Positions 3,063 through 19,578 of a stretch of DNA of 64,000 bases are shown piece by piece (position 1 is the first letter of the stretch; every line of letters starts with the position of its first letter). Made by a program: the position numbers and the translations under genes. Under the pieces are notes generated by a model. That model did not search any database and was not told the DNA's origin. It saw only the letters and a program-made list of their open reading frames with translations. This DNA comes from Shigella virus Moo19, in sequence record MZ358387; one strand, written 5' to 3'.

Positions 3063-3209
3063 ATGAGCAAACTAAAAAACGCATTTATCCTGATTGTCAG
3101 TATCCTTGCACTTGTTACTTTGGTTTCCGTTCACATTGGAAAACCTCTGGTAAACACTGACTATGGTAATGGTCAAAAAGTAAAATCCATCCTGTTAGCG
3201 GATAAGTAA
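3063..3209 (+). CDS. Small putative membrane protein (48 aa, MSKLKNAFILIVSILALVTLVSV...)
   Basis: Hand-translated; hydrophobic N-terminal segment; below the 60-aa cutoff of the ORF track. Confidence 0.3.
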   Translation: MSKLKNAFILIVSILALVTLVSVHIGKPLVNTDYGNGQKVKSILLADK

Positions 3210-3276
3210 AAACCGCATCTAGAAACTGGGCTGTTCCACAGCTTACGGATACATTTCAACCAATTAGGAGGCATCC

Positions 3277-3492
3277 ATGAACGTAGAAAATATCCGTATA
3301 ATTGAGAATTGCTTTGGTGATAAACCAGTAGACCTCAGCAACGCAAGAAGGTCTACAGATGAAGAATACAGAGAGTTTTTATCCTTACTCGATGAATATC
3401 ATATGCAAGGGCATGTTGAATTACATGCCCATCTGCATAACTCAGGCTACTTCATGGATAAACTGGAAGCTGAGACAGGCTGTCCATTCTAA
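3277..3492 (+). CDS. Hypothetical protein (71 aa)
   Basis: ORF track; strong RBS aggagg upstream. Confidence 0.45.
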   Translation: MNVENIRIIENCFGDKPVDLSNARRSTDEEYREFLSLLDEYHMQGHVELHAHLHNSGYFMDKLEAETGCPF

Positions 3493-3499
3493 GTAAAGC

Positions 3500-3526
3500 A
3501 TTCCCTCTTAGGAGGGAATTAGCCAT
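3500..3526 (+). terminator. Terminator-like hairpin (attccctc-ttag-gagggaat)
   Basis: 8-bp inverted repeat read directly; weak T tract. Confidence 0.4.
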
Positions 3527-3528
3527 CT

Positions 3529-3547
3529 TTAGATAGTCAATCAAAAG
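3529..3547. promoter_or_regulatory. Second copy of 14-mer ttagatagtcaatc in an imperfect palindrome
   Basis: Identical 14-mer to 3015-3028. Confidence 0.4.
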
Positions 3548-3583
3548 TAGATTGTGATTCTACTTTAGTTCAACTTCAAAACC

Positions 3584-3600
3584 AAGACGCTCCGCGTCTT
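3584..3600 (+). promoter_or_regulatory. Tri-loop hairpin aagacgc-TCC-gcgtctt (7-bp stem); candidate vRNAP early promoter hairpin
   Basis: Perfect inverted repeat; GC-TCC-GC core shared with 2596 and 7442. Confidence 0.35.
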
Positions 3601-3705
3601 AAGGATGTATGAGTGCATCCAATCCTGTATGAAATCTTAGTCCTTTGTTTGGGTATGTTCACCGACGAGCGTACCCATAAATCACATTTATCTGGAGAGT
3701 ATAAA

Positions 3706-4089
3706 ATGTCTATTAAAACTTTTGGTCAAACTTTCGGTTCTGCTGTTGCTAACAAACCTGCTGCAACTGAACGTCCTAAAGCTAAATTCTGGCTGAACGT
3801 TGGCTATACAGCTAACGAAGGCACAGAAGAAGCTAAGTTCATCTCACTGCCTACTGGTATTCCACTGGATACTCAGGAGCATGTAAGCACTAAGTCCAGC
3901 AATGCTGACTTCCGTGCTATGCGTTGTGCTCAGAACGACCTGCTTGACCAGCTTCTGGCATTTGCAGAAGGTCTGGAACCAGGTGAAGAAGGTGTCATTC
4001 AACTTCAGGTTCAACTTCGTCGAGTCAAAGAAGAAGAAGCTGACATCCCAGCAGACGAGAATAAATATGCTCGTAAGCTGACTTTCTAA
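3706..4089 (+). CDS. Hypothetical early protein (127 aa)
   Basis: ORF track frame 3613-4089; ATG 3706 with ggagag RBS; followed by strong terminator. Confidence 0.5.
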
Positions 4090-4098
4090 TCACTAACT

Positions 4099-4127
4099 GG
4101 ACTCCCTTCGGGGAGTCCTTTTATTTT
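4099..4127 (+). terminator. Rho-independent terminator (ggactccc-ttcg-gggagtcc + T tract)
   Basis: Read directly. Confidence 0.7.
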
Positions 4128-4232
4128 AACTCAGCGATAAACTAAGTTTAACTTTTAGGAGCTTTTCGACGAAGAGTCACTAAAACTTAAACGTAAACAC
4201 AAGCAGATAACTTAGAGTAAGGAGTAATCAAG

Positions 4233-4418
4233 ATGCGTGTACTATGTAACCGTTATAATCCGACTAGGTTAATTAACATAATGGCTATGTATGGTAGCAA
4301 GATGGCTTATGATGCTCGTTGGCAGGTATCTGTAGAAGATAGAGATGGTCAGCATTATGACCACTACTTCACAGCTAAGCCAACTCGTAAACAAATCCGC
4401 AAACTTCACAAAGGATAA
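4233..4418 (+). CDS. Hypothetical protein (61 aa)
   Basis: ORF track; RBS taaggag upstream. Confidence 0.4.
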   Translation: MRVLCNRYNPTRLINIMAMYGSKMAYDARWQVSVEDRDGQHYDHYFTAKPTRKQIRKLHKG

Positions 4419-7488: not shown

Positions 7489-8307
7489 ATGTACTCATCT
7501 ATTGAACATCAGAAGCAACTGGAAACTCTGTTTAACAAGAATCAACTAATTCCTCGTATGAGGAAAGAGTTCGAGGACTCCGAAGAAATCCAATTCACTA
7601 AGTATTTTGAGCATATTGGCATCGACCCCAAACTGGGTATTGATGCAATGGTGCAAATTGCTCTGCATAAACGTGCTGACATTCCTACTATGGTTGGCTC
7701 ACTCATGAGTCACAGTCAGGATGCTCAGTACATAGCAGACACTCTGCTTAAGATGGCAGAGCACGACTGCTTTGACTTCGACCCAAGTATCGATAAGTTC
7801 ATCGTCATCTATGAAATCAGTGATGATGTACAACTGGAACTGGAAGCATTCCAGTATCCACTGCCTATCGTCAGTGAACCGAGAGAGGTTAAAGATAACC
7901 GTGGCTCAGGTTACTGGAATACCAAAGGCAGTATCATCCTCAAGAAGAACCACCATGAAATGGATGTGTGTCTCGACCACATTAACCGTATGAACAATCA
8001 ACGACTCAGCATCAACTGGGACGTTGCCAAGTTCGTCAAAAACTCATGGGCTAACCTGGATAAACCTAAAGAAGGGGAATCCCGTCAGGACTTTCAGAAG
8101 CGTGTACGTGCATTCGAGAAATACGACCGTACAGCAAAAGACGTTATGGAACTGGTGACTAAAGAAGGTAACAACTTCTCACTTGACCATAAGTATGACA
8201 AGCGTGGACGCACCTACTCACAGGGCTACCACATTAACTATCAAGGTACTAGCTGGAATAAAGCTGTTATCGAGTTCGCTGATAAGGAGTTGGTAAACGA
8301 TGAGTAG
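7489..8307 (+). CDS. Phage RNA polymerase II small subunit (N4 gp15-like)
   Basis: 272 aa; lies upstream of a T7-like RNAP C-terminal-half homolog; N4-like organisation; strong RBS aggag. Confidence 0.55.
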   Translation: MYSSIEHQKQLETLFNKNQLIPRMRKEFEDSEEIQFTKYFEHIGIDPKLGIDAMVQIALHKRADIPTMVGSLMSHSQDAQYIADTLLKMAEHDCFDFDPSIDKFIVIYEISDDVQLELEAFQYPLPIVSEPREVKDNRGSGYWNTKGSIILKKNHHEMDVCLDHINRMNNQRLSINWDVAKFVKNSWANLDKPKEGESRQDFQKRVRAFEKYDRTAKDVMELVTKEGNNFSLDHKYDKRGRTYSQGYHINYQGTSWNKAVIEFADKELVNDE

Positions 8308-8587: not shown

Positions 8588-8636
8588 TTAACCCATATGC
8601 GTGTTCCATACAGGAACCAGATGCAGGAGTAATAAA

Positions 8637-9854
8637 ATGCAAACTTTTACCGCTAAACAGTACCTGGCTATCGATATCGCTAACAACTTTGGTCTGGATA
8701 AGAAGACCTGGGATGAGCGTTTGGCCTGGTTCGATGAGAACAAAGACAACCTCATGAACCAGTTAGAAGCAGCAGAGGAACCTGCTCTGTATTATGCAGG
8801 CGTTAAAGCCTATGAAGACATGCTGGCTGGTAAGCCTATTGGTTATACCATTGCACTGGATGCTACTGCATCTGGTCTGCAATTACTGGCATGTCTGACT
8901 GGTGACCGTAAGGCTGCTCAGTTGTGTAACGTAGTGAACTACTATGGTAGCGAAGGCAAGGCTCGTCGTAGCGATGCCTACACCGTTATCTACCGTACCA
9001 TGCTGGAAGCCGTAGGTCAGTCTTCTCGTGTTAAACGTGATGACTGTAAGCAGGCTGTAATGACTGCATTCTATGGCTCAGAAGCTAAGCCTAAAGAAGT
9101 GTTCGGTGAAGGTATTCTGTTGAAGACCTTTGAACACGTAATGGGTATCGAAGCACCTGGCCCGTGGGAACTGAACAAGTTCTATCTGCAATGTGGTAAC
9201 CCGGATGCAACCTCATATTTATGGGTTCTGCCGGATAACTTCCATTGTCAGATTAAGGTAATGGTTGACGAAGTACAGACCATTAACTTTATGAACAAGC
9301 CATATGACATCATTCGCAAAGTACAGGGTACTGAAGAGAAGACTCGTATGCTCTCTGCTAATACCACTCACTCAATTGATGGAATGGTAGTGCGTGAGAT
9401 GCTGCGTCGTTGTAACTATGATGCTGACCTGATTACCTATGTAAAACAGCTTTGCTATGGCGTACAGGAATCAAATGTATTCCTGCCAGAAAACGCTGAA
9501 ATGGTGCATGAGTTATGGAACCACTATGAACGTAGTGGTTTCCTGTCCATGCGTATCTGCGATTATCTGGATGCAGGCTCCATCGCTCTGGTTGACCGTC
9601 AGGTCATCCTTGAGATGCTGGAGACTCTGCCTAAGAAGCCATTCAAAGTACTGACTGTACATGACTGCTTCCGTTGCCATCCTAATTATGGCAATGACCT
9701 GCGTCGTCAATACAATCAGATTCTGTCTGACATTGCTAAATCCAACCTGCTGTCATTCATTCTGTCTCAGGTACTGGGACAAGAGTTCACTGCTGGTAAG
9801 CTGGACAATGACATGTGGAAAGATGTCTTAGACGCTGAGTACGCATTAAGCTAA
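8637..9854 (+). CDS. Phage RNA polymerase II large subunit, T7-like single-subunit RNAP catalytic half (N4 gp16-like)
   Basis: Motifs DATASGLQ (motif A-like), KQAVMTAFYGS (motif B-like), TVHDCF (motif C-like); ATG 8637 with aggag RBS (track ORF starts 8601). Confidence 0.75.
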   Translation: MQTFTAKQYLAIDIANNFGLDKKTWDERLAWFDENKDNLMNQLEAAEEPALYYAGVKAYEDMLAGKPIGYTIALDATASGLQLLACLTGDRKAAQLCNVVNYYGSEGKARRSDAYTVIYRTMLEAVGQSSRVKRDDCKQAVMTAFYGSEAKPKEVFGEGILLKTFEHVMGIEAPGPWELNKFYLQCGNPDATSYLWVLPDNFHCQIKVMVDEVQTINFMNKPYDIIRKVQGTEEKTRMLSANTTHSIDGMVVREMLRRCNYDADLITYVKQLCYGVQESNVFLPENAEMVHELWNHYERSGFLSMRICDYLDAGSIALVDRQVILEMLETLPKKPFKVLTVHDCFRCHPNYGNDLRRQYNQILSDIAKSNLLSFILSQVLGQEFTAGKLDNDMWKDVLDAEYALS

Positions 9855-9911: not shown

Positions 9912-10733
9912 ATGCCTGAGTTAAAAGTTGCTTTTAACAAAGACACCTATGTAGCTACCGTACTGGATGCCAGTGGTAGCGTTCCGAGTGGTTCTGTGAA
10001 CGTAGGTACTTTCTTCCATCCTGATGAGACTTACCCTGATAGTTATGTTATCTATCATGGTGTTCGTGAACTCCTGTATAAGCGTTCTGAAGTTGACCCG
10101 GCACAACCAGGCTTCTGGCCTGAGAACATTACCAACATGCAAGCTGTTACCATCGATAACAAGGCTACTGCACGTCTGGTACTGAATACCTCCCTACCTC
10201 GTGTAGTATCTACCATCGAAGGTGGTAAGGTTACTCTGTCTGTTGTTGCTCTGGGTGGTAAGGCTCCTCTTAAATACAAGTGGGAGTTCCGTGCACCTAA
10301 TGCTTCAACCTGGACTGCTGTATCTGGGCAGACTACTGCTAATCTGGTTCTGGATAATATCGATGCTGATAAAGCAGGTGAGTATAAAGTCACCGTTACC
10401 GATGCTGCCGGAACCAGTGTAGATAGTACTGCTCTGGTAGCTGTGGGTGCTTATCCACCACCAGCACTGACGGGCATTAAGGCTACGCCTACTTCCCTGT
10501 CTCTGTCTGTAGCTACTGACGCTGCTGGTAAAACTGTAGCTCTGTCTGCTATCCCGACTGATGCTGAACTGGGTACATTGTCTATTAAGACTGCTCCAGA
10601 TTCTGCTCGTGCTACTGCTACTATTTCTGGTTCTACTCTGACTGTTAAACCAGTGGCTGCTGGTGCTGCAACTTCTGTTGTAGTAACCAACGGTAAAGTT
10701 GATGTGACTATCACTATCAACGTTGCAGCATAA
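9912..10733 (+). CDS. Ig-like domain protein; probable capsid decoration protein (N4 gp17-like)
   Basis: Ig-like sequence features (GEYKVTVTDAAG; Big_2-like C-terminal repeats); position after RNAP II genes. Confidence 0.5.
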   Translation: MPELKVAFNKDTYVATVLDASGSVPSGSVNVGTFFHPDETYPDSYVIYHGVRELLYKRSEVDPAQPGFWPENITNMQAVTIDNKATARLVLNTSLPRVVSTIEGGKVTLSVVALGGKAPLKYKWEFRAPNASTWTAVSGQTTANLVLDNIDADKAGEYKVTVTDAAGTSVDSTALVAVGAYPPPALTGIKATPTSLSLSVATDAAGKTVALSAIPTDAELGTLSIKTAPDSARATATISGSTLTVKPVAAGAATSVVVTNGKVDVTITINVAA

Positions 10734-10754
10734 GCTGATAGTTTTGTTTGGCTA

Positions 10755-10784
10755 AAGCCCTCCTTGTGAGGGCTTTCTTGTATC
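10755..10784 (+). terminator. Terminator-like hairpin (aaagccctc-cttgt-gagggcttt)
   Basis: Read directly; T tract weak. Confidence 0.5.
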
Positions 10785-10799
10785 TATAGGAGAGTAAAA

Positions 10800-11114
10800 G
10801 TGACTAACAAATTACGTGTATGGCATATCCCGCAAGTGCCAATGAAAGCATTCTTTGTAGAATGCGATAGCATTCAGGAAGCTGTTAAAATTCGTAGTGC
10901 ACTGGCAGATTACGACTTGTTCCAGTATGAGAACAATGTCAAAGGTGATTACTGTAACGCCAGCGGTATTCATATCTGGGATGAAACTCTGTCTGACCAA
11001 GACCTCATCGATATGGAACTAGACGACCGTTGGGTTGACTGGTTCTATGAAGATGAAAATGAATACTTCGATGACCCAGAAGAATATCTGGAATGGCTTG
11101 CTACGCAATCCTGA
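10800..11114 (+). CDS. Small acidic protein (C-terminal half D/E/W/Y-rich); candidate DNA-mimic-type host-interference protein
   Basis: ORF track (GTG start with aggag RBS); composition; bracketed by terminators. Confidence 0.45.
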   Translation: MTNKLRVWHIPQVPMKAFFVECDSIQEAVKIRSALADYDLFQYENNVKGDYCNASGIHIWDETLSDQDLIDMELDDRWVDWFYEDENEYFDDPEEYLEWLATQS

Positions 11115-11161
11115 TTGCTTTTTTGGGTTGAGCAAACCCGTAACATTCCTTTGATATCCTT

Positions 11162-11190
11162 GACCTCCCTAAATGGGAGGTCTTTTTTTG
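11162..11190 (+). terminator. Rho-independent terminator (gacctccc-taaat-gggaggtc + T7)
   Basis: Read directly. Confidence 0.75.
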
Positions 11191-11216
11191 GTTGTTATCT
11201 ACTTTGGAAAATAAAT

Positions 11217-11417
11217 ATGAAATTTTCTGATTTACTCTGGGCAATTCTATTCCTGTTACTTACTGCCTTTATTTATGGGGTAGTACTGCCTAATGCAGTA
11301 TCTGCTTCAGATAGTATAAGTGTAGTAATTGGATTGATTGTTTCTATTATGTGGCCTGTTATAGCAGGTCGTGTTGTTTACCTTATCGTTAAGAAACGGA
11401 AGAAGAAACATGCGTAA
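11217..11417 (+). CDS. Small membrane protein (66 aa, two hydrophobic segments, basic C-terminus)
   Basis: ORF track frame 11115-11417; ATG 11217. Confidence 0.4.
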   Translation: MKFSDLLWAILFLLLTAFIYGVVLPNAVSASDSISVVIGLIVSIMWPVIAGRVVYLIVKKRKKKHA

Positions 11418-12246
11418 ATTTATTATAGGTTGTTTACTGGCAATAGTTGCAATGGCTAGTCTTACTGGTTGTTATCAACGAGTAGAGCCAGGTAATGTAG
11501 GTATTATCGTTAACCGTTTGGGTGACGATAAGGGCGTTGACCAACAAGTAAAAGGCGTAGGCCGTTACTGGATTGGTTGGAATGAAGACCTGTATACGTT
11601 CCCGACATTCAAACAGATGAAAACCTACGACGATAAGTTTTACTTCCAACTGTCGGACGGTACTCAAATTGGCCATCAACTGGCTATCAGCTATAAGGTC
11701 AACCCGACCAAAGTAGCGACCATCTTCCAGACCTACCGTAAAGGTGTCGATGAAATCACTGACCAGGATTTACGTCAGCGTATTGCCGATATCCTGAACC
11801 GTCAGGGTAACCTGATTAACACTGACAAGTTCATTGACGGTGGTAAGTCACGTTTGCTGGATAGTGTAGCTGATGCAGTTAAAAAAGAGATGGAGCCAGT
11901 CGGTATCGACATTATGGCTATCTCCTGGGTAGGTGCACCGGAATACCCGGACAACGTGAAGCGTGCAATTAACGCGAAAGTTGAAGCTACCCAGAAAACC
12001 CTGCAACGTGAGCAAGAAGTGCAACAGCGTATCGCTGAAGCAAATATGGCTCGTGAGCAAGCCAAAGGTGAAGCTGATGCCGTAGTACTGAAAGCAAAAG
12101 CAGAAGCTGATGCTATTAAGCTGCGTGGTGATGCACTTCGTGAAAACCCTGGTGTAATGGAACTGGAAGCAATCAACAAGTGGAATGGTGTATTACCAAC
12201 CACAATGATTCCAGGTGCAGCCACACCATTTGTGCCTGTTAAATAA
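11410..12246 (+). CDS. SPFH/band-7 (prohibitin/HflC-like) lipoprotein
   Basis: Lipobox LTGC after signal peptide; SPFH-like core and C-terminal coiled-coil; ATG 11410 with ggaag RBS. Confidence 0.65.
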   Translation: MRKFIIGCLLAIVAMASLTGCYQRVEPGNVGIIVNRLGDDKGVDQQVKGVGRYWIGWNEDLYTFPTFKQMKTYDDKFYFQLSDGTQIGHQLAISYKVNPTKVATIFQTYRKGVDEITDQDLRQRIADILNRQGNLINTDKFIDGGKSRLLDSVADAVKKEMEPVGIDIMAISWVGAPEYPDNVKRAINAKVEATQKTLQREQEVQQRIAEANMAREQAKGEADAVVLKAKAEADAIKLRGDALRENPGVMELEAINKWNGVLPTTMIPGAATPFVPVK

Positions 12247-12252
12247 CAATAA

Positions 12253-12282
12253 AACCCCCAGACATTGCTGGGGGTTTTTACG
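12253..12282 (+). terminator. Rho-independent terminator (aaccccca-loop-tgggggtt + T tract)
   Basis: Read directly. Confidence 0.7.
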
Positions 12283-12295
12283 TCTGGAAAGTGTA

Positions 12296-12646
12296 ATGGA
12301 AAAGAACCGCAGGAAGACACTCATTGAGCGTCTGCTTGCCCGTATCAAGATAATGGATATGGGCTATACCGTTAATGGTCAGCCAAGCCTATGCCACATC
12401 TGGACTGGTTCCCACTCTGGGAATGGTCGAGGTGGTCAATATGGCAGGATTTCCGTGAATGGAGTTACCTCTGCTACACATATTGTGGCCTATACCCACT
12501 ATCACGGTTACATCCCTTGCAAAATGCAGGTAGACCATCTCTGTAATAACCGTCTGTGCTGTAACCCGGAACATCTCGAACTGGTGACTCACCAAGAGAA
12601 CCAGAGAAGAAGAGCTGCACGCCAAACTAAAGGTAAAAAGAAATGA
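12296..12646 (+). CDS. HNH homing endonuclease (HNH_3 type)
   Basis: Motifs CHIWTGS...GYI...VDHLCNNRLCCNPEHL...HQEN; ATG 12296 downstream of terminator. Confidence 0.7.
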   Translation: MEKNRRKTLIERLLARIKIMDMGYTVNGQPSLCHIWTGSHSGNGRGGQYGRISVNGVTSATHIVAYTHYHGYIPCKMQVDHLCNNRLCCNPEHLELVTHQENQRRRAARQTKGKKK

Positions 12647-12813
12647 TGAACTATTTAGGTGGTATTACTCTTGGTTGGCTTATTACCGCATTAGTTTTTG
12701 TATATCTGCCAGATGAGCATATTGCTAAAGCAAAAGCCATGAAAGAAACTTGCGAACAAAAACTTTCTCGTGAGCAGCAATGTGTAATGCAATTCGTACC
12801 GGAGAAAAAATGA
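12643..12813 (+). CDS. Small membrane protein (56 aa)
   Basis: Hand-translated; hydrophobic N-terminus; overlapping start/stop with neighbours. Confidence 0.3.
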   Translation: MMNYLGGITLGWLITALVFVYLPDEHIAKAKAMKETCEQKLSREQQCVMQFVPEKK

Positions 12814-13007
12814 CCTTAACTCGTACTCAACAGTCTACCCTGCGAATGATTGCAGGTGGTTTAACTCGTGTTGCACCGAATAACAAAACAGCCCTTGCTT
12901 TGAAAAAAGCAGGGCTGATTACATTCAATCCACCTTTCGGGTGGGTATGTACTAAAGCTGGTCTTGAAAAGAACCAGGAACTGATAGGTATGCGTAAGCC
13001 TACCTGA
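12810..13007 (+). CDS. Hypothetical protein (65 aa)
   Basis: ORF track frame 12780-13007; ATG 12810 overlaps upstream stop. Confidence 0.35.
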   Translation: MTLTRTQQSTLRMIAGGLTRVAPNNKTALALKKAGLITFNPPFGWVCTKAGLEKNQELIGMRKPT

Positions 13008-13035
13008 TAATTAATTCCCTAACAGGAGATGCAAA

Positions 13036-13380
13036 ATGAGTGACCGTACTCCCTCAACTGATGCCCTGGAAACTCTCGGCATGATTCACTTCAAACCGGA
13101 ACATCGTGACGCTATTCACTTAGCTGTTGAACCAGTTAAAGCAGGATTGCCACTGTCACCCGGTGAACGCATTGGTATCGTGGATGGCTTTGCTTATCCG
13201 GCTGGTTATAAACTGGTACTGGAAAACAAAGCATTGGTAGTCCCTTACCACGGAATTGTTGACCCATTCCTGCCTAAAGGTGTTATTACACCAGGCAAAT
13301 CCTTCTGGTTCGTAATGGCTCCACGTATGGTTACATCTCTACGTCATGTCTGGTCACACCCGGAGTTCCCTGATGAGTGA
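13036..13380 (+). CDS. Hypothetical protein (114 aa)
   Basis: ORF track; RBS aggag. Confidence 0.45.
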   Translation: MSDRTPSTDALETLGMIHFKPEHRDAIHLAVEPVKAGLPLSPGERIGIVDGFAYPAGYKLVLENKALVVPYHGIVDPFLPKGVITPGKSFWFVMAPRMVTSLRHVWSHPEFPDE

Positions 13381-13732
13381 ACCATTAGATATTAATGATA
13401 CCGGGCTGTGTGAAGCACTGCTCATCATGGGCGACGAAAAAGCCGTAGCCTGGGCATGGATTCGAGGTTATACCAAGAATCTGCTACAACAAATCGAAGA
13501 GTATCTCGGTGACACAGACTATAAATATCAGTCCAATGTCATTGAAGATGAATACGACTTAATGGAACTCGCTGACGGTCACCAAAATGGTAACTGGGGC
13601 GATTACATGATTGTCGGTGGACTCTTTGAAGGTGAAAGAATTGACCCAACTTTTTGGAACAAATATGCCCTCGTCCGTGGTATTCCTCGTGAAGAAATTT
13701 CAGAAAGTAATCTCTTCTCTTGCTCCTGTTAA
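13373..13732 (+). CDS. Hypothetical protein (119 aa)
   Basis: ORF track frame 13346-13732; ATG 13373 overlaps upstream stop. Confidence 0.4.
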   Translation: MSEPLDINDTGLCEALLIMGDEKAVAWAWIRGYTKNLLQQIEEYLGDTDYKYQSNVIEDEYDLMELADGHQNGNWGDYMIVGGLFEGERIDPTFWNKYALVRGIPREEISESNLFSCSC

Positions 13733-13743
13733 GGAATGAAATA

Positions 13744-14799
13744 ATGTCAAACATCGATTCACTTGTCGTGTGTAACTCAAGACAAGCTCGTAAATTTATC
13801 ATCCGTGCATTGCAGGCAGGTAACGTACCGTTCCTGACCTCCTCACCCGGTATGGGTAAATCTGCAATGATTCATAGCATTGCAGAAGAATTTGGCATGA
13901 AGCTGATTGACCATCGTCTGTCTACTTCTGCCCCAGAAGACCTGTCTGGTCTGCCACGTTTCCGTCCAGATGGACGTGCAGAGTTTGCACCGTTTGCAGA
14001 CCTGTTCCCACTGGAGGGTGACGAAGTACCCGAAGGTTATAACGGCTGGCTCCTATTCCTTGATGAGTTCAACTCAGCCAAGAAAGAAGTTGTTGCTGCT
14101 GCATACAAACTGATTCTCGACCGTATGACTGGTCAGAAGAAGCTGCATCCTCAAGTGATGATTGTATGTGCTGGTAACAAACAAACTGACCGTGCAATCG
14201 TTAACCCAATGGGTACTGCAATGCAGTCTCGTGTTGTGCATCTGGAAATGGAAATCAACTTCGACATCTTTGTCGAAGACGTAATGATTCCTCAGAAATG
14301 GGATGAGCGTTTAGTTGCATTCCTCCATGCTAATACGTCGTATCTGCATGACTTCGACCCGGCACACAAGAACAAAACGTTCTGCTGTCCTCGTACCTGG
14401 GACTTCGTTAACGAAGACCTAAAGAACCAGCCTCCTGGTGCTCTGCCTGATGAAGATTCTATCTTCTATGCTGGTCACGTCACTGCTGGTAAGGCAACTG
14501 AGTTCGTTCAGTTTACTCAGGTATATAACCAACTGGTCACTATTGAGCAAGTGGTTAAAGACCCTAAAGAGGCACGTTTACCGAAAGATAACAACCTCTG
14601 CTGGGCAACTGTTACCTATCTGGCTAATAAGACCACGGTAGATAACTTCCCGGATGTAGTTGAGTATATCCAGCGTCTGGATAAGATGACTCACCGCATC
14701 CTGTACTTCCGTACTGTGCATAAAATCGTACCAGATGTTACTGGCCTCCCTGAATGGCGTAAAGCTGGTGCAGAACTGTCTCGCTACCTACACGGATAA
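13744..14799 (+). CDS. MoxR-like AAA+ ATPase
   Basis: Walker A SSPGMGKS, Walker B LLFLDEF; ATG 13744 with aagga RBS. Confidence 0.75.
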   Translation: MSNIDSLVVCNSRQARKFIIRALQAGNVPFLTSSPGMGKSAMIHSIAEEFGMKLIDHRLSTSAPEDLSGLPRFRPDGRAEFAPFADLFPLEGDEVPEGYNGWLLFLDEFNSAKKEVVAAAYKLILDRMTGQKKLHPQVMIVCAGNKQTDRAIVNPMGTAMQSRVVHLEMEINFDIFVEDVMIPQKWDERLVAFLHANTSYLHDFDPAHKNKTFCCPRTWDFVNEDLKNQPPGALPDEDSIFYAGHVTAGKATEFVQFTQVYNQLVTIEQVVKDPKEARLPKDNNLCWATVTYLANKTTVDNFPDVVEYIQRLDKMTHRILYFRTVHKIVPDVTGLPEWRKAGAELSRYLHG

Positions 14800-14802
14800 A
14801 AC

Positions 14803-15975
14803 ATGAACCAGATACCTCAGCACACTTTGACCGACGAGCAACTCATGCGAGAGTATGACCGTACTCAGGCTCAGGCTTTTCTGGGCAAGAGTGCTGCGTT
14901 CTTTGGCTCACTACTGTGTAGTCTTAAATTCTCCTGGCAACGGGAGAATTGCGATACCGCTCAGACCGATGGTACTGAGCTTCAGTTTAACCCTGACTTC
15001 TTTGTCTGGTTAAAGCCTGAAACAAGAAAGACCGTGCTTATGCACGAGCTTTGGCATGTAGGTTATCTGCATGGTGTCCGTCAGGGTTCTCGTGACCCAG
15101 AGTTCTGGAACTATGCCTGTGACATCTACATTAACAACCAGTTAGAAGACGACGGCTACTCCTTCGAGGGAGTAGAGAACTGCTGGAAAGACCCAAAATA
15201 TAAAGGTTGGGTCGAAGAGGATATTTACGATGACCTTATGAAGAATCCCCACAAGAAGCCGAAGGCATTGGGGGCATTTGGAACAGGGTCTGGTGGAGAT
15301 ATGGTTAGCCCCACTTCGGGTTCATCTCCTGCAACTATCGTCAACAACGTAGTACGTGCACTGCAACAACAAAAACTGGCTGGTGGCACACTAGCTGGTA
15401 CTGGTGCAGGCCGTATGCAAGAGGTGATTACCCAATTCCTCAAGCCAGTAGTTCCGTGGCAGCAAGTCCTGTTCGACTTCTTCACTGACATTGATGACAC
15501 CAAGTACACCTGGGCAAGACCTAATCGTCGTTACCCGGATATGTACCTGCCATCTCTGGAAGATGATGAAGGTCGCTTACGACATCTGGCCTATTTCGAG
15601 GATGTCTCTGGTTCCATTAGCAATGCTGACTCTCTGCGTTTTAACTCAGAAGTGGCCTATGTTAAGAGCCAGTTTAATCCGAAGAAAATGACCCTACTCA
15701 CTTTCGATACTGTTATTCAGGACGAAATCGATATCACCGAAGAGGATACCTTTGAGGAGATTAAGATTACAGGCCGTGGAGGTACTTGCCTCAAGCCTGT
15801 TCGTGAGTGGATTATCAAGAACAAGCCAACTGCTGCTATCATCTTCTCTGATATGCACGTTGCACCTATGGAAGAACTCCCGTTTGATATACCTATCATC
15901 TGGGTTTGTTTGGGAAACCGACATGCCACCGTGCCTTTCGGTGAAATCTTACATATTGACCCAGGAATGAAATAA
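14803..15975 (+). CDS. VWA domain protein with N-terminal metallopeptidase-like HExxH (DUF2201-like)
   Basis: MIDAS-like DVSGSIS; HELWHVGYLH; typical partner of MoxR ATPases. Confidence 0.7.
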   Translation: MNQIPQHTLTDEQLMREYDRTQAQAFLGKSAAFFGSLLCSLKFSWQRENCDTAQTDGTELQFNPDFFVWLKPETRKTVLMHELWHVGYLHGVRQGSRDPEFWNYACDIYINNQLEDDGYSFEGVENCWKDPKYKGWVEEDIYDDLMKNPHKKPKALGAFGTGSGGDMVSPTSGSSPATIVNNVVRALQQQKLAGGTLAGTGAGRMQEVITQFLKPVVPWQQVLFDFFTDIDDTKYTWARPNRRYPDMYLPSLEDDEGRLRHLAYFEDVSGSISNADSLRFNSEVAYVKSQFNPKKMTLLTFDTVIQDEIDITEEDTFEEIKITGRGGTCLKPVREWIIKNKPTAAIIFSDMHVAPMEELPFDIPIIWVCLGNRHATVPFGEILHIDPGMK

Positions 15976-16481
15976 TGGTTTTAAACGGAAATGCTCTGTA
16001 TCGTTCGTCTCAACTGCTGGATGTCCCAGACCGTAAGGTATCCGAGCATGGTGTAAGCTATGGATTGGGTGAAGCTGGTTATGATATTCGTATCAAACAA
16101 GACATCACCTTCTATCGCTTATTTGGGTTGATTCCAATGGTGAAAACTGTCGATGGTGAGACGGTAACTCGTCGCTTCGGTAAGTTCGCATTGGCTTCAG
16201 CAATTGAGAAGTTCAATATGTCTCCGTCCTGTGTAGCTATCGTTCACGATAAGTCTACCTGGGCAAGACGTGCATTATCAGTGTTCAATACCGTGATTGA
16301 ACCAGGATGGAAAGGGTATCTTACTCTCGAACTGGTCTATCATGGTCGTAAGAAACTGCATATCCCGGCTGGTGCTGGGATTGCACAAGTGCTGTTCCAT
16401 CTGGTTCAAGAACCTGCCCATTACAATGGGAAGTATCAGAACCAGGAAAACCAACCTGTCGCTGCAAGAAGCAGCAAATAA
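15975..16481 (+). CDS. dCTP deaminase/dUTPase-fold protein
   Basis: Sequence resemblance to dCTP deaminase family (GYDIR...; beta-barrel motifs). Confidence 0.55.
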   Translation: MVLNGNALYRSSQLLDVPDRKVSEHGVSYGLGEAGYDIRIKQDITFYRLFGLIPMVKTVDGETVTRRFGKFALASAIEKFNMSPSCVAIVHDKSTWARRALSVFNTVIEPGWKGYLTLELVYHGRKKLHIPAGAGIAQVLFHLVQEPAHYNGKYQNQENQPVAARSSK

Positions 16482-16490
16482 GGAATTACC

Positions 16491-16688
16491 ATGTCTGTAT
16501 TTACTACTAAAGTTGGCGGTGTAAAAGTTACTGTTGTTGCTGCAAATGTTGCATTTGTACGCGATATCGAAGGTAAAGGTGAACTGAACTTCGTATCCGG
16601 TCTGCAACTGCAAACTGAAGTCGGTTATGACTCTGTACGTCGTAACGTAGCTAAAGCACTGTCAGGGGCTGAAGCAGAAGCTGAATAA
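16491..16688 (+). CDS. Hypothetical protein (65 aa)
   Basis: ORF track; RBS aagga. Confidence 0.4.
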   Translation: MSVFTTKVGGVKVTVVAANVAFVRDIEGKGELNFVSGLQLQTEVGYDSVRRNVAKALSGAEAEAE

Positions 16689-16708
16689 GTAGCAAGTGCT
16701 TACCTTAA

Positions 16709-16736
16709 TAGCCCTGCAATGCAGGGCTATTTGTGG
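16709..16736 (+). terminator. Rho-independent terminator (tagccctgc-aat-gcagggcta + ttt)
   Basis: Read directly. Confidence 0.6.
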
Positions 16737-16746
16737 AAGTTCCTTC
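16731..16746 (+). repeat. 16-mer ttgtggaagttccttc (copy 1), near-palindromic core ggaagttcc
   Basis: Identical 16-mer at 17055-17070. Confidence 0.6.
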
Positions 16747-16764
16747 AATAACTCAGGAGTCTTA

Positions 16765-17025
16765 ATGGAAGTTTTATCTGCATTACTGGTTCTGGTAATT
16801 GCTCTTACAGCTTATCTGTTACCAACTATCATCGCATTCGTTCGTGGTCATGCTTCTAAGTGGGGCATTTTTATCACTAATTTACTGTTGGGCTGGTCAC
16901 TGATTTTCTGGATTGTTGCACTGATTTGGTCACTGTCCAATAAAGGACAATCTCAGACTACAATCGTTAACGTTGGAAGTGGTAACAGCTACAACGTGTC
17001 TCAAACGAGTCAGTCTGATAAGTAA
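16765..17025 (+). CDS. Superinfection-immunity (T4 Imm-like) membrane protein
   Basis: Motif LPTIIAFVRGH...NLLLGWSLIFWIVALIW; ATG 16765 with aggag RBS. Confidence 0.6.
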   Translation: MEVLSALLVLVIALTAYLLPTIIAFVRGHASKWGIFITNLLLGWSLIFWIVALIWSLSNKGQSQTTIVNVGSGNSYNVSQTSQSDK

Positions 17026-17054
17026 CTAACCTAAGCATCATTTAAAAGTGGTGC

Positions 17055-17070
17055 TTGTGGAAGTTCCTTC
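17055..17070 (+). repeat. 16-mer ttgtggaagttccttc (copy 2)
   Basis: Identical to 16731-16746. Confidence 0.6.
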
Positions 17071-17098
17071 CAGCTCATTGCTTATCCATGCGTAACCC

Positions 17099-17127
17099 AA
17101 AGCCCACTTAATCGTGGGCTTTTTTAA
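17099..17127 (+). terminator. Rho-independent terminator (aaagcccac-loop-gtgggcttt + T6)
   Basis: Read directly. Confidence 0.75.
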
Positions 17128-17140
17128 TTTAGGTACTCTT

Positions 17141-17602
17141 ATGTCAGTCGTTAAAGGTTCATGGTCTGCCCGATACCCTAACTTAATGAATATACCCCGT
17201 GGCTCAGGTAAGTCAGTACTAGTAGGAATGGACTTTTCTAGTTTGGAAGACCGTGCAGCAATAGCTATACGTGATGGTAAATCTGCAAGAGTTATATCAG
17301 TATCGCCTACAGGTCGTATAAAAGATGACGCTATAGATGCGATGCTTATGCAAGCTCTACAACATAACCTGTCTGGAACAAAAGCTGACTGGTACACAGT
17401 AGATGACTTGTATACACCCCCTAAACCACACTGCATGTCCCAAGTGCATGACATTATTGATAGCTTCTGGTCTGCCCCGGCACTGGGATTATATGGGCAA
17501 TATATTGCTCAGTTAGACAAGAAGCCAAAAACCAAAGATGTTTTTAAAGGAAAAAGCACTACTCACCATTACCCCTGGTATAGAAGAGGAAGCAAATACT
17601 AA
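17141..17602 (+). CDS. Hypothetical protein (153 aa)
   Basis: ORF track frame; ATG 17141. Confidence 0.4.
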   Translation: MSVVKGSWSARYPNLMNIPRGSGKSVLVGMDFSSLEDRAAIAIRDGKSARVISVSPTGRIKDDAIDAMLMQALQHNLSGTKADWYTVDDLYTPPKPHCMSQVHDIIDSFWSAPALGLYGQYIAQLDKKPKTKDVFKGKSTTHHYPWYRRGSKY

Positions 17603-17604
17603 TA

Positions 17605-18051
17605 ATGCGTATCCCATTCTTAAACAAAAGGAAAAGGGTTCCAACCCTGTTTCAAAAGGGAATTGAAGACGAGTTCGCTCTTAACCGTAAAGCACAGCAA
17701 TACATCGTAACTTTGTTCACTGGTGCAAAGGTAGATGCAGAAATGCAGCTTACTTTCATATTTGAACAGCTATTCATCGTGTACAATCTCGCCTTGTTTA
17801 CTGGCTCTCACGAAGTGAGTGATTGTGCACGAGAAGCCCTCCGTAAGCTCCGTGGTGAGTTTGAAAGACTACATGCCAGCTTTCCCTTCACTATGGATGC
17901 AGTCGCCTCTGTGAACTGCTCAAAGGCTCTGGCAATGGGTATACCCATTTTGCAAGAACTACCTCGTAGTGAATTTAAGTTGGCTTATGTGCAAGCCCGT
18001 AAGCTAACGGAGTCCAAACAAACCCTAATCTATTTAGAGAACCTACGATGA
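17605..18051 (+). CDS. Hypothetical protein (148 aa)
   Basis: ORF track. Confidence 0.4.
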   Translation: MRIPFLNKRKRVPTLFQKGIEDEFALNRKAQQYIVTLFTGAKVDAEMQLTFIFEQLFIVYNLALFTGSHEVSDCAREALRKLRGEFERLHASFPFTMDAVASVNCSKALAMGIPILQELPRSEFKLAYVQARKLTESKQTLIYLENLR

Positions 18052-18992
18052 TTAAAGCAGAAGTAATTGCTGATAGTCTTCATGAGAAGACAGGCACTCG
18101 CATTACCACGTTTGAACTGGTTTACCCACGTTTCATTCACAGTGAGTTTATGACTCACCGCATCTTCAACCGTAATGCTTCAAGCAGTCGTGCAATTCCT
18201 ACCGACCGTTTTATTGAACAGGTGCGTACTGACCCTGTATTCCCAAGCTATTGGGGTAAGAACCAGAAAGGGATGCAGGCATTTGAAGAACTGTCTGAAG
18301 ACCAACGTAGTGATGCAATGTTTATCTGGGACCAGGCTGCGTCCAGTGCTGCTACCTATGCAGAAATGCTGCGTCGTGGACAAGTCCATAAGCAGATTGT
18401 TAACCGCATTCTGGAACCGTTCACCCATATCCGTGTGGTAGTTACATCCACTAGCTGGACAAACTTCTATGGTTTACGTGACCATGAGGATGCCCAACCG
18501 GAAATCCGTTTACTGGCTCAGGCCATGAAGAAGGCTCATGAAGAATCTGTTCCGCAAAAACTCAAGAAAGGTGACTGGCATCTGCCTTATATTCGTGGTG
18601 CTGATTGTGCTAACGCTTACAATCATTGCAAATATCAACGAATTACAAGGGATGAACCAGGTAATGAGGAAATTTTAGGCTTACTGCTTAAAGTTTCTGC
18701 TGCTCGTTGTGCTCGTGCCTCCTATAACAACTTCGAAGGCAAGCCATCTACTATCAGTGATGACCTTGACCTCTTCGCTAAGTTGGTAGAGAAACAGCCA
18801 ATTCATGCCTCACCTACTGAGCATCAGGCTACACCGATGGACTTCAGTACCAAGTACGTTAATAACTCAAACCCAGCAACCTGGGAACAGGGTGTTACCT
18901 CTATGGATAGGGAGGGTAATCTCTACTCCGGTAACCTGCTGCACTTCGTCCAATTCCGTAAACTCATCCCCGGCGAAACAATCACTGCGTGA
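18048..18992 (+). CDS. Putative FAD-dependent thymidylate synthase (ThyX-like)
   Basis: ThyX-like signature region (FMTHRIFNRNASSSRAIP); assignment by recall, not searched. Confidence 0.45.
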   Translation: MIKAEVIADSLHEKTGTRITTFELVYPRFIHSEFMTHRIFNRNASSSRAIPTDRFIEQVRTDPVFPSYWGKNQKGMQAFEELSEDQRSDAMFIWDQAASSAATYAEMLRRGQVHKQIVNRILEPFTHIRVVVTSTSWTNFYGLRDHEDAQPEIRLLAQAMKKAHEESVPQKLKKGDWHLPYIRGADCANAYNHCKYQRITRDEPGNEEILGLLLKVSAARCARASYNNFEGKPSTISDDLDLFAKLVEKQPIHASPTEHQATPMDFSTKYVNNSNPATWEQGVTSMDREGNLYSGNLLHFVQFRKLIPGETITA

Positions 18993-19028
18993 TTGTGTTG
19001 TTTGGTTTGAACAACTCTTAAGGCAAAT

Positions 19029-19301
19029 ATGAAAAAGCTCGCTTTGTACGCAATGATTGCTAGTTGCATCATTACACTGGTTTATGTAATTAAGCTCCAA
19101 TGGTTCGTTGAAACAGACTATGCGTTCTGGCGAATCACAGCCATTACTGCACTAAGTGAAATTGGTCTGTGGTGCTTCTATTACTACGCTCGTGACTACG
19201 AAGGCATCAAAGCACACGAAGAAAATGCCAAGCGTATTGCACGGCACTTTACTATGATGGTTCAGCCATCAGATGAAGACGACTCAGGACAAAAGCAGTA
19301 A
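19029..19301 (+). CDS. Membrane protein (90 aa, two TM-like segments)
   Basis: ORF track; hydrophobicity. Confidence 0.45.
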   Translation: MKKLALYAMIASCIITLVYVIKLQWFVETDYAFWRITAITALSEIGLWCFYYYARDYEGIKAHEENAKRIARHFTMMVQPSDEDDSGQKQ

Positions 19302-19307
19302 ACTTAA

Positions 19308-19334
19308 AGACCTCCTACGGGAGGTCTTTTTTTG
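19308..19334 (+). terminator. Rho-independent terminator (agacctcc-tacg-ggaggtct + T7)
   Basis: Read directly. Confidence 0.75.
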
Positions 19335-19359
19335 AGTCTACTACTGTCCGGGAGGACTT

Positions 19360-19578
19360 ATGCCACATAAATACCGTATTAAAAGCTCTGGTGATTTCGT
19401 CTATGCGTTAGTTTACTCGGACTACGGAGCAGCTAAGTTAGACACCAATGCTACTGGCATTGAGCACAAATCCGTAACCCTGGAAGAGAATGGAGGGTAT
19501 CCATTCTTCACTGTACCAGTTAATCAGTTGGAAGAAATTTATGATGAATCCAAAGGTAATACACAGCAAAACGGGTGA
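19360..19578 (+). CDS. Hypothetical protein (72 aa)
   Basis: ORF track; RBS ggagg. Confidence 0.35.
   Translation: MPHKYRIKSSGDFVYALVYSDYGAAKLDTNATGIEHKSVTLEENGGYPFFTVPVNQLEEIYDESKGNTQQNG

Follow-up and report, generated by a model that had tools for sequence, protein, structure and literature searches.

A pair of neighbouring genes in Shigella virus Moo19 (record MZ358387) raises the question of what a MoxR-class ATPase and a peptidase-like partner with a von Willebrand factor A (VWA) domain could do for a phage. The window analysed here is a stretch of 64,000 nt from that record, and all positions are window positions. At 13744–15975 an initial annotation had described two open reading frames (ORFs), a MoxR-type ATPase with Walker A and B motifs and a partner with an HExxH-containing N-domain and a VWA metal-ion-dependent adhesion site (MIDAS). 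Its coordinates were correct to the base, as two ORFs coincide exactly with this stretch; it did not recognise the pair as the core genes gp24 and gp25 of phage N4.

13744–14799, + strand: ORF A, predicted MoxR-class AAA+ ATPase, N4 gp24 orthologue, 351 aa
14803–15975, + strand: ORF B, DUF2201 protein, N4 gp25 orthologue, 390 aa; zincin-like N-domain (predicted), linker, VWA-like domain

Over their full lengths ORF A and ORF B are 62% and 68% identical to N4 gp24 and gp25, respectively, and on sequence comparison we are highly confident that they are orthologues. Both belong to the published set of 14 core genes for N4-like phages, in which gp24 ('unknown') and gp25 ('vWFA domain') are middle genes (PMC4193335). 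The N4 and window loci share the order gp24–gp25–dCTP deaminase and a position between the RNAPII genes and rIIA/B. The gap between the two genes is 167 nt in N4 (where gp25 occupies 3165–4307 of locus L017) compared to 3 nt in the window, and otherwise nothing of substance differs. In both genomes the pair lies in a block of middle genes with dCTP deaminase, ThyX, rIIA/B and replication genes.

The pair is therefore not new: the N4 record itself notes that gp24/gp25 resemble a gene pair of Streptomyces coelicolor, proteins 97–99% identical to both ORFs are already public, and the combination of a MoxR ATPase with a metallopeptidase-vWA protein was described in group 2.2 jumbo phages by Iyer et al. 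in 2021 (PMC7824862). The feature and its architecture are already known, and this is an ordinary member of the N4 gp24/gp25 family. Literature searches found no functional study of N4 gp24/gp25, and a phage transposon-mutagenesis preprint (PMC12676376) does not mention these genes.

Domains and motifs of the two proteins

ORF A matches PHROG 1297 ('ATPase', E = 4e-129) and passes the Pfam threshold for the generic AAA family (26.5 bits, cut-off 21.2), which is the only AAA family that it passes; its score for the MoxR/dynein-type family AAA_5 is below the cut-off (17.4 bits versus 22), and no match was found in NCBIfam. Among the 21 members of the ORF A family at E ≤ 0.1, AAA_5 is matched by 20, bpMoxR by 5 and AAA_3 by 4. 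The best sequence match in the PDB is the AAA domain of midasin. When an AlphaFold2 (AF2) monomer model (predicted local distance difference test (pLDDT) 83) was searched with Foldseek, NorQ and CbbQ made up 11 of the top 13 matches (E = 8e-8 to 1e-6), with midasin and dynein next and NtrX, RFC, Lon and MCM after them within a factor of about 10–100 in E-value. With other AAA+ clades so close behind, the discrimination of the MoxR class by Foldseek is modest. Since the AAA_5 score lies under the Pfam cut-off, the MoxR-type assignment made in the initial annotation leans on the best-matching structures and on the VWA neighbour, and we accept 'MoxR-class' for ORF A by structure and context, not by family threshold. 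ORF A is an AAA+ ATPase with intact catalytic motifs, which its model places in the MoxR/CbbQ/NorQ structural class.

The conservation of ORF A was assessed in 25 homologues (51–82% identity) and in a wider set that adds plasmid and jumbo-phage homologues.

13731–13735, + strand: Shine-Dalgarno-like AAGGA, 8 nt 5' of the ATPase ATG, read from the sequence
13840–13863, + strand: Walker A (P-loop) SSPGMGKS, aa 33–40; P35, G38, K39 and S40 invariant in the 25 homologues
13906–13956, + strand: helix-2-insert motif IDHRLSTSAPEDLSGLP, aa 55–71, predicted pore-side loop
14050–14067, + strand: Walker B LLFLDE, aa 103–108; D107 and E108 invariant in the 25 homologues
14170–14232, + strand: sensor-1 AGN (N145) to arginine R163 (QSR), both invariant in the 25 homologues

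Both Walker motifs are thus present as first noted. P35, G38 and K39 of Walker A stay invariant when the plasmid and jumbo-phage homologues are included, N145 and R163 are at least 90% conserved in the distant homologues, and R217 is invariant in the 25. Within the helix-2-insert motif, D56, H57, R58, T61, S62, P64, D66, G69 and P71 are invariant in the 25 homologues, and the skeleton P64-x-D66-x-x-G69-x-P71 is invariant down to 25% identity (plasmid and jumbo-phage relatives) and present in Vequintavirus Bas51. A pore-side role of the aa 55–71 loop is suggested by the structures of NorQ–NorD (PMC13036017). In the model, this motif forms the core of an insert of 40 aa that separates strand 2 from Walker B, and sensor-1 is preceded by a short strand (132–134). 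The ATG at 13744 agrees with the N-termini of homologues, and the ORF preceding the ATPase gene has its stop codon at 13730–13732. A start at TTG 13720 was rejected, because homologues begin at ATG 13744 and AAGGA lies 8 nt upstream of it.

Truncated ATPase clusters of 224–231 aa exist (P0147, P0150), and in some G7C-like phages (MZ394712.1 / NC_070872.1 (U1G) and OP312987.1) ~0.5–0.9 kb of extra DNA interrupts the match to 13744–14799. For U1G, RefSeq lists 'ATPase (x2)' beside HNH endonuclease genes and the GenBank record has an HNH homing endonuclease; homing endonucleases may thus target the ATPase gene.

ORF B belongs to DUF2201 and consists of an HExxH N-domain, a linker and a minimal VWA domain whose MIDAS site is complete. 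The DUF2201 family (Pfam PF13203 and PF09967) numbers 12,893 representative clusters at E ≤ 1e-3, and the membership of ORF B is far beyond chance: aa 16–252 match DUF2201_N ('putative metallopeptidase') with 218 bits (E = 2.3e-64), and aa 262–386 match DUF2201 ('VWA-like') with 122.6 bits (E = 1.3e-35). NCBIfam gave no match, and searches of the PDB by sequence and by profile gave chance-level matches only. Three sets of sequences were compared, namely 30 N4-like sequences (A2), 58 diverse relatives down to 22% identity (A3), all 58 of which carry both DUF2201_N and DUF2201, and 151 sequences consisting of the window protein and 150 distant cluster representatives. The AF2 model (pLDDT 77.5) has three parts: an N-domain (aa ~1–155, pLDDT about 90), a motif-rich linker (~156–260, pLDDT <50 over about 195–255) and a small alpha/beta C-domain (~261–386) with a Rossmann-like VWA fold and the full MIDAS site.

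15043–15057, + strand: HELWH, aa 81–85, candidate zinc-binding/catalytic motif, on helix 72–87 of the model
15106–15135, + strand: WNYACDIYIN, aa 102–111, carried by the helix that follows; D107 may be the third metal ligand
15511–15552, + strand: W-x-RPNRR-x4-YLP motif, aa 237–250, in the flexible linker just 5' of the VWA domain
15601–15615, + strand: MIDAS DxSxS, here DVSGS, aa 267–271; D267, S269 and S271 present in 151/151 and invariant in A3
15772–15855, + strand: other MIDAS residues, GRGGT (T328, 149/151) and FSDM (D350, 150/151)

The HExxH and the DVSGSIS motif (aa 267–273) previously noted in the partner were both recovered, and both are deeply conserved. H81, E82 and H85 are invariant in A2 and conserved to at least 90% in A3; of the 151 sequences, 143, 139 and 145 have them, respectively. 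The MIDAS residues are likewise invariant in A2 and are kept in 149–151 of the 151. D107, which sits 22 residues past H85 on helix 99–116 of the model, is invariant in A2 and A3 and present in 147/151, and could supply the third metal ligand. In the linker, W237, P240, R242, R243, Y248, L249 and P250 are invariant in A2, and two of them, R243 and P250, are still conserved to at least 90% in A3, in a region where pLDDT is <50; that this motif contacts the ATPase is speculation.

The description of the N-domain as zincin-like rests on the invariant HExxH, on the order of secondary-structure elements and on recurrent sub-threshold family matches, and we consider it well supported as an inference. 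In the model, two helices, three short strands, the HExxH helix and the D107 helix follow one another in the order of a minimal zincin. Among the 58 relatives, sub-threshold Pfam matches of the N-domain were to PhageMetallopep (12/58), Peptidase_M48 (6), SprT-like (4), eCIS_core (3) and M56 (2); those recurring in at least two members were to zincin families only. The isolated N-domain of ORF B matched DUF2201_N alone in Pfam at E ≤ 10. The structural search, which bore out the ATPase, left the zincin fold unconfirmed, because the matches listed for ORF B were taken up by the VWA domain, with no zincin among them.

The gp25/DUF2201 family is PHROG 1314, which is labelled 'HNH endonuclease', and this label appears in many RefSeq phage records, including that of N4. 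Family-model searches detected no HNH domain in ORF B or its 58 relatives. The identity looks wrong, as a real HNH ORF in the same window (12215–12646) does match HNH PHROGs, and the label is probably a propagated mis-annotation.

Relatives of the pair in phages and plasmids

The pairing of MoxR and VWA proteins, which the initial annotation had pointed to, is borne out by the distribution of the two genes: they are co-inherited in phages and plasmids, as judged from their homologues, and, as read from the DNA, translationally coupled in the window, where 3 nt separate ORF A from ORF B. In the phage collection, relatives of ORF B were found in 681 records and relatives of ORF A in 814. Counting full-length matches only, there are 465 and 466 records, respectively; the two proteins diverge in parallel, and their host breakdowns agree (Pseudomonas 112/112, Achromobacter 17/17, Rhizobium 16/16). 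Across N4-like phages of very different hosts, the pair is >50% identical. The order ATPase–DUF2201–dCTP deaminase recurs in N4, in IME11, in a Roseococcus metagenome-assembled genome (MAG; L003) and in contig2 of Mesorhizobium yinganensis (L005).

Beyond the N4-like phages the arrangement is looser. The pair of the group 2.2 jumbo phages has the same two-gene architecture, with about 23–27% identity to the window proteins and longer products. Both homologues are adjacent in Asteriusvirus vB_Ec-M-J, just downstream of virion structural genes; in Vequintavirus both are present about 3.5–3.7 kb apart, on opposite strands and divergent; and relatives of ORF B occur in the other jumbo phages phAPEC6 and Atu_ph07. 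In some relatives the genes of the pair are 1–2.5 kb apart with inserted genes, or on opposite strands.

Plasmid homologues of the pair are 25–30% identical to the window proteins in full-length alignment. The genes of bacterial and plasmid MoxR–DUF2201 pairs either overlap or have one gene between them. On Synechocystis pSYSA (L013), a gene named 'MoxR family ATPase' by NCBI (28% identity to ORF A) overlaps the DUF2201 gene by 4 nt; the neighbours of this pair are toxin-antitoxin and DUF262 genes. On Burkholderia and Cupriavidus megaplasmids (B. pseudomallei NZ_CP009155, L008; C. necator pBB2, L014), the ATPase gene, a conserved ~300-aa gene without a Pfam match and the DUF2201 gene follow in order, and one such Burkholderiales triad directly adjoins VirB2/3/4 type IV secretion genes. 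This bacterial context comes from the plasmid collection; a genome scan for bacterial relatives with two peptide patterns returned N4-like loci only.

N4-like blocks comprising the gp24-like ATPase, DUF2201, deaminase and ThyX genes were also observed in large bacterial contigs (L015, L005 and L003). In a Mesorhizobium MAG (L015; GCA_004016625.1, SAJN01000019.1) the block also carries H-NS, helicase and PolA genes and is abutted by LysR, NmrA and glycosyltransferase-type host genes. Upstream of the block, RNAPII genes were not detected in either L015 or L005. The N4-like family is regarded as strictly lytic; the blocks in the three contigs are possibly integrated or remnant N4-like elements. 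A further contig (L002; JANQNF010000027.1, 69,347 bp), binned as 'MAG: archaeon isolate PL23a_bin.95', is 100% identical to the ORF B region. Since the contig is an N4-like genome of the coliphage type, the archaeon bin assignment is almost certainly wrong.

Proposed function and competing explanations

The best structural matches of ORF A belong to NorQ–NorD and CbbQ–CbbO, of the CGN subfamily of MoxR, although the identity is just 13–21%. As in the window, these ATPases have a neighbouring VWA partner with a MIDAS site, an adaptor built of N-domain, linker and VWA. NorQ and CbbQ are about 255–270 aa long compared to 351 aa for ORF A, whose C-terminal ~90 aa form an extra helical region that is conserved in plasmid homologues. 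ORF B is much smaller (390 aa) than NorD or CbbO, with a minimal VWA, no evident finger insertion and an HExxH in its N-domain, whereas NorQD and CbbQO, which carry out metal insertion or inhibitor release, are not known as proteases. MoxR ATPases generally work with a neighbouring VWA protein, and in the 2026 structures of NorQ–NorD the VWA domain is docked on the MoxR ring with a finger in the pore that touches the helix-2 insert, while ATP drives a twisting of the adaptor linker between N-domain and VWA; docking of the VWA domain on helix-2-insert pore loops is considered by the authors to be general for MoxR/VWA pairs (PMC13036017).

By analogy with these two systems, ORF A would form a hexameric ring, and the VWA end of ORF B would dock on its pore face, against the helix-2-insert loop 'PEDLSGLP', which is invariant. 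A client protein would be held by the MIDAS site, the HExxH domain or both, ATP hydrolysis would twist or stretch the linker and thereby remodel the client, and the zincin-like domain would most likely cleave it or be gated by this motion. The net result would be an AAA+ protease that is split between two proteins, specific for its substrate and expressed together with the middle (replication-phase) genes. Its client would most likely be a host-side protein limiting infection (counter-defence or host takeover), not a virion component. We infer the ring-plus-adaptor complex from the helix-2 insert, which is the most conserved non-catalytic element of ORF A, and from the N-domain–linker–VWA layout of ORF B. 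Such an ATPase–adaptor complex is probable. Proteolysis by the HExxH domain, for which the motif conservation speaks, we consider evenly balanced, and a host-directed or counter-defence client, argued from distant relatives, is a tentative proposal. Taken whole, an ATP-driven, adaptor-mediated protease or remodeller of a host-side client, favoured over a role in virion assembly, has slightly less than an even chance of being right.

The choice of client is informed by Vequintavirus Bas54, whose pair comprises the sole family members with experimental data found, in a 2025 preprint on HIDEN-SEQ transposon sequencing (bioRxiv 10.1101/2025.11.20.689424). Homology of the Bas54 genes to those of the window was judged from the orthologues of its sister phage Bas51, which are 26% (E = 8e-21) and 22% (E = 9e-19) identical to ORF A and ORF B, respectively, and retain the PxDLSGLP, HExxH, ACDxxIN and DVSGSIS motifs. 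The Bas54/Bas51 proteins are longer than those of the window (394 and 486 aa), their genes lie about 3.7 kb apart on opposite strands, and the Vequintavirus family lacks the high-identity core conservation of the N4-likes.

On E. coli K-12 the MoxR ATPase gene bas54_0063 (60/64 TA sites hit) and the putative metallopeptidase gene bas54_0055 (81/86 TA sites hit) are both non-essential, while all Bas54 head and tail genes were scored essential. In a resampling comparison against the '311' library, bas54_0063 was strongly depleted (log2 fold change –7.23, adjusted p 0) and bas54_0055 less so (log2 fold change –2.20, adjusted p 0.009). Knocking out bas54_0063 sensitises the phage specifically to DS-28, a two-gene system of strain CFE311, in its cloned form, and the second gene reported against DS-28 is bas54_0140, an unrelated small gene, not bas54_0055 (bioRxiv 10.1101/2025.11.20.689424). 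Nothing further on DS-28 was found in the literature, and PADLOC-DB defence models gave no match for ORF A or ORF B. The Bas54 data point to a host-specific, counter-defence-type function: a host-side client is favoured because the homologues are dispensable on K-12, the ATPase is needed against DS-28 and bas54_0055 is also depleted in the comparison whose command line points to CFE311. With no more than moderate confidence we therefore rank the host-directed reading first, above those of assembly, activase or metal insertion, and replication-linked proteolysis.

Several points weigh against it. The experimental data found concern distant homologues only (22–26% identity) and come from a preprint, in which the heading of the resampling sheet (CFE303) disagrees with its command line (311 library), a mismatch within the supplement. 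The effect of bas54_0055 is much weaker than that of bas54_0063, and bas54_0055 is absent from the two genes reported against DS-28; with bas54_0140 as the second gene, the ATPase may not act only through its partner. Counter-defence genes are usually accessory and fast-evolving, but this pair belongs to a slowly evolving, universal core set, and its core status together with >50% identity across N4-likes of different hosts fits a housekeeping role better. A NorD-like VWA finger is not evident in the AF2 model of ORF B.

The most specific form of this idea is that the pair is an ATP-driven counter-defence protease, in which the MoxR ring and VWA adaptor would take hold of a protein of host immunity or surveillance (e.g., a DS-28-like component) and the zincin domain would destroy it. 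In this full form it is unlikely to be correct.

A virion-assembly chaperone-protease, assisting head or tail assembly with the peptidase domain processing structural proteins, is the role that Iyer et al. proposed for the jumbo-phage pair, on the model of the MoxR/VWA genes in Acidianus two-tailed virus (PMC7824862). The position of the vB_Ec-M-J pair beside structural genes agrees with it, and core-gene status among N4-likes would suit a housekeeping role. However, the Bas54 homologues tolerate insertions at 94% of TA sites on K-12, where every head and tail gene is essential, which argues against an essential assembly role, at least in the Vequintavirus lineage. In both the window and N4, moreover, the pair sits in the middle-gene block, on the opposite strand to the late structural block and about 23 kb away from it, and homologous pairs occur on plasmids, which make no virions. 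We consider assembly quite unlikely.

No more probable is metal-cofactor insertion or enzyme activation, as in iron insertion into NO reductase by NorQ–NorD, Rubisco activation by CbbQ–CbbO, or CobS–CobT. Here the HExxH would be a metal-handling site, not a protease, and the clients would be co-transcribed enzymes of nucleotide metabolism or replication. NorQ and CbbQ are the closest solved structures to the ATPase, a weak PHROG match of ORF A is to a CobS-like 'porphyrin biosynthesis' family, and in N4-likes the pair is in tight operon linkage with dCTP deaminase, with ThyX or thymidylate synthase nearby. Yet the HExxH glutamate, the general base, is conserved like both histidines, which mere metal binding would not need; the weak family matches of the N-domain are to peptidase families; and the dCTP deaminase linkage is absent in Vequintavirus and on plasmids. 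The neighbouring enzymes are not known to need an assembly factor.

A replication-linked protease, in which a small zincin and an AAA+ unfoldase clear protein–DNA adducts or tightly bound proteins like SprT/Wss1 with Cdc48, is very unlikely. The location among replication genes would suit it, as would the occurrence on conjugative plasmids beside type IV secretion genes, where relaxase–DNA adducts arise, and a Rhodococcus locus in which a DUF2201 gene lies near an SOS-response-associated peptidase gene. The SprT-like matches (4/58 family members, sub-threshold) are weak and at motif level only, no DNA-binding domain was detected in Pfam scans of the ORFs and the 58 relatives of ORF B, the plasmid contexts vary, and the 'AAA family ATPase' near the Rhodococcus gene is not an ORF A homologue (14% identity, helicase-type AAA_30).

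That the genes are mere neighbours that do not work together, with the HExxH a structural relic without catalysis, could be read from the separated or opposed genes of some relatives and the different effect sizes in Bas54, but is scarcely credible given their co-occurrence in the same phage sets (465/466 full-length) with parallel divergence, the shared Beta-proteobacterial and cyanobacterial plasmids, the fact that HExxH, D107 and MIDAS hardly vary across thousands of clusters, and the general action of MoxR ATPases with a neighbouring VWA protein (PMC13036017).

Surroundings of the pair and implications

The window is an N4-like podophage genome with rIIA/rIIB, DNA polymerase and primase genes, and a virion RNA polymerase gene (product of 3,493 aa) on the minus strand. 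Its lineage reads as Gamaleyavirus-like (G7C-like); the best DNA match of the region is Escherichia phage Jgk1 (83%), followed by G7C-like Gamaleyavirus genomes (about 80%).

7489–8307 and 8601–9854: RNAPII subunit genes
15975–16481, + strand: dCTP deaminase, N4 gp26 counterpart (PHROG 1663, E = 5e-59); its start overlaps the ORF B stop

The ORF B stop and the dCTP deaminase ATG overlap as TAATG. A sigma-70 promoter scan found fewer sites than in shuffled sequence and was uninformative, as expected, since N4 middle genes are transcribed by a phage RNA polymerase. Terminator-like hairpins in 10000–19500 number 19 compared to 7.6 in shuffles, about 2.5 times more. The strong + strand hairpins at 11162–11182, 17099–17122 and 19306–19329 share the stem start AAAG(A/C)CC. 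Near the pair, strong hairpins (5 or more G-C pairs) are limited to those at 11162–11182 (+) and 12278–12251 (–) upstream and at 17099–17122 (+) downstream; within ORF A and ORF B, the candidates are only weaker ones on the – strand.

The genuine HNH endonuclease ORF of the window (12215–12646, + strand, 143 aa) matches nine HNH or endonuclease PHROGs, lies 1.1 kb upstream of the pair and overlaps the end of the gene that precedes it (11371–12246), which encodes a 291-aa protein of a 'lipoprotein' family (PHROG 200). The annotation of IME11 lists no HNH gene in the stretch corresponding to the upstream side of the pair, and the ORF may for that reason be an inserted homing endonuclease. Directly 5' of the ATPase gene, two small + strand ORFs (13036–13380 and 13346–13732) overlap in different frames. 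They match positions 6–110 and 143–226, respectively, of one 226-aa PHROG family (11912), and look like a split or frameshifted gene.

The feature itself is ordinary and already described; its interest lies in its function and in the new lead from Bas54. The analysis ties together the N4 pair, the 'MoxR plus metallopeptidase-vWA' pair of jumbo phages and the Vequintavirus genes with a phenotype, and replaces a vague 'chaperone?' label with an idea that can be tested. If the counter-defence protease reading is true, the pair would represent a mechanistically new kind of anti-defence, targeted proteolysis assisted by an AAA+ ATPase, on mobile elements generally.

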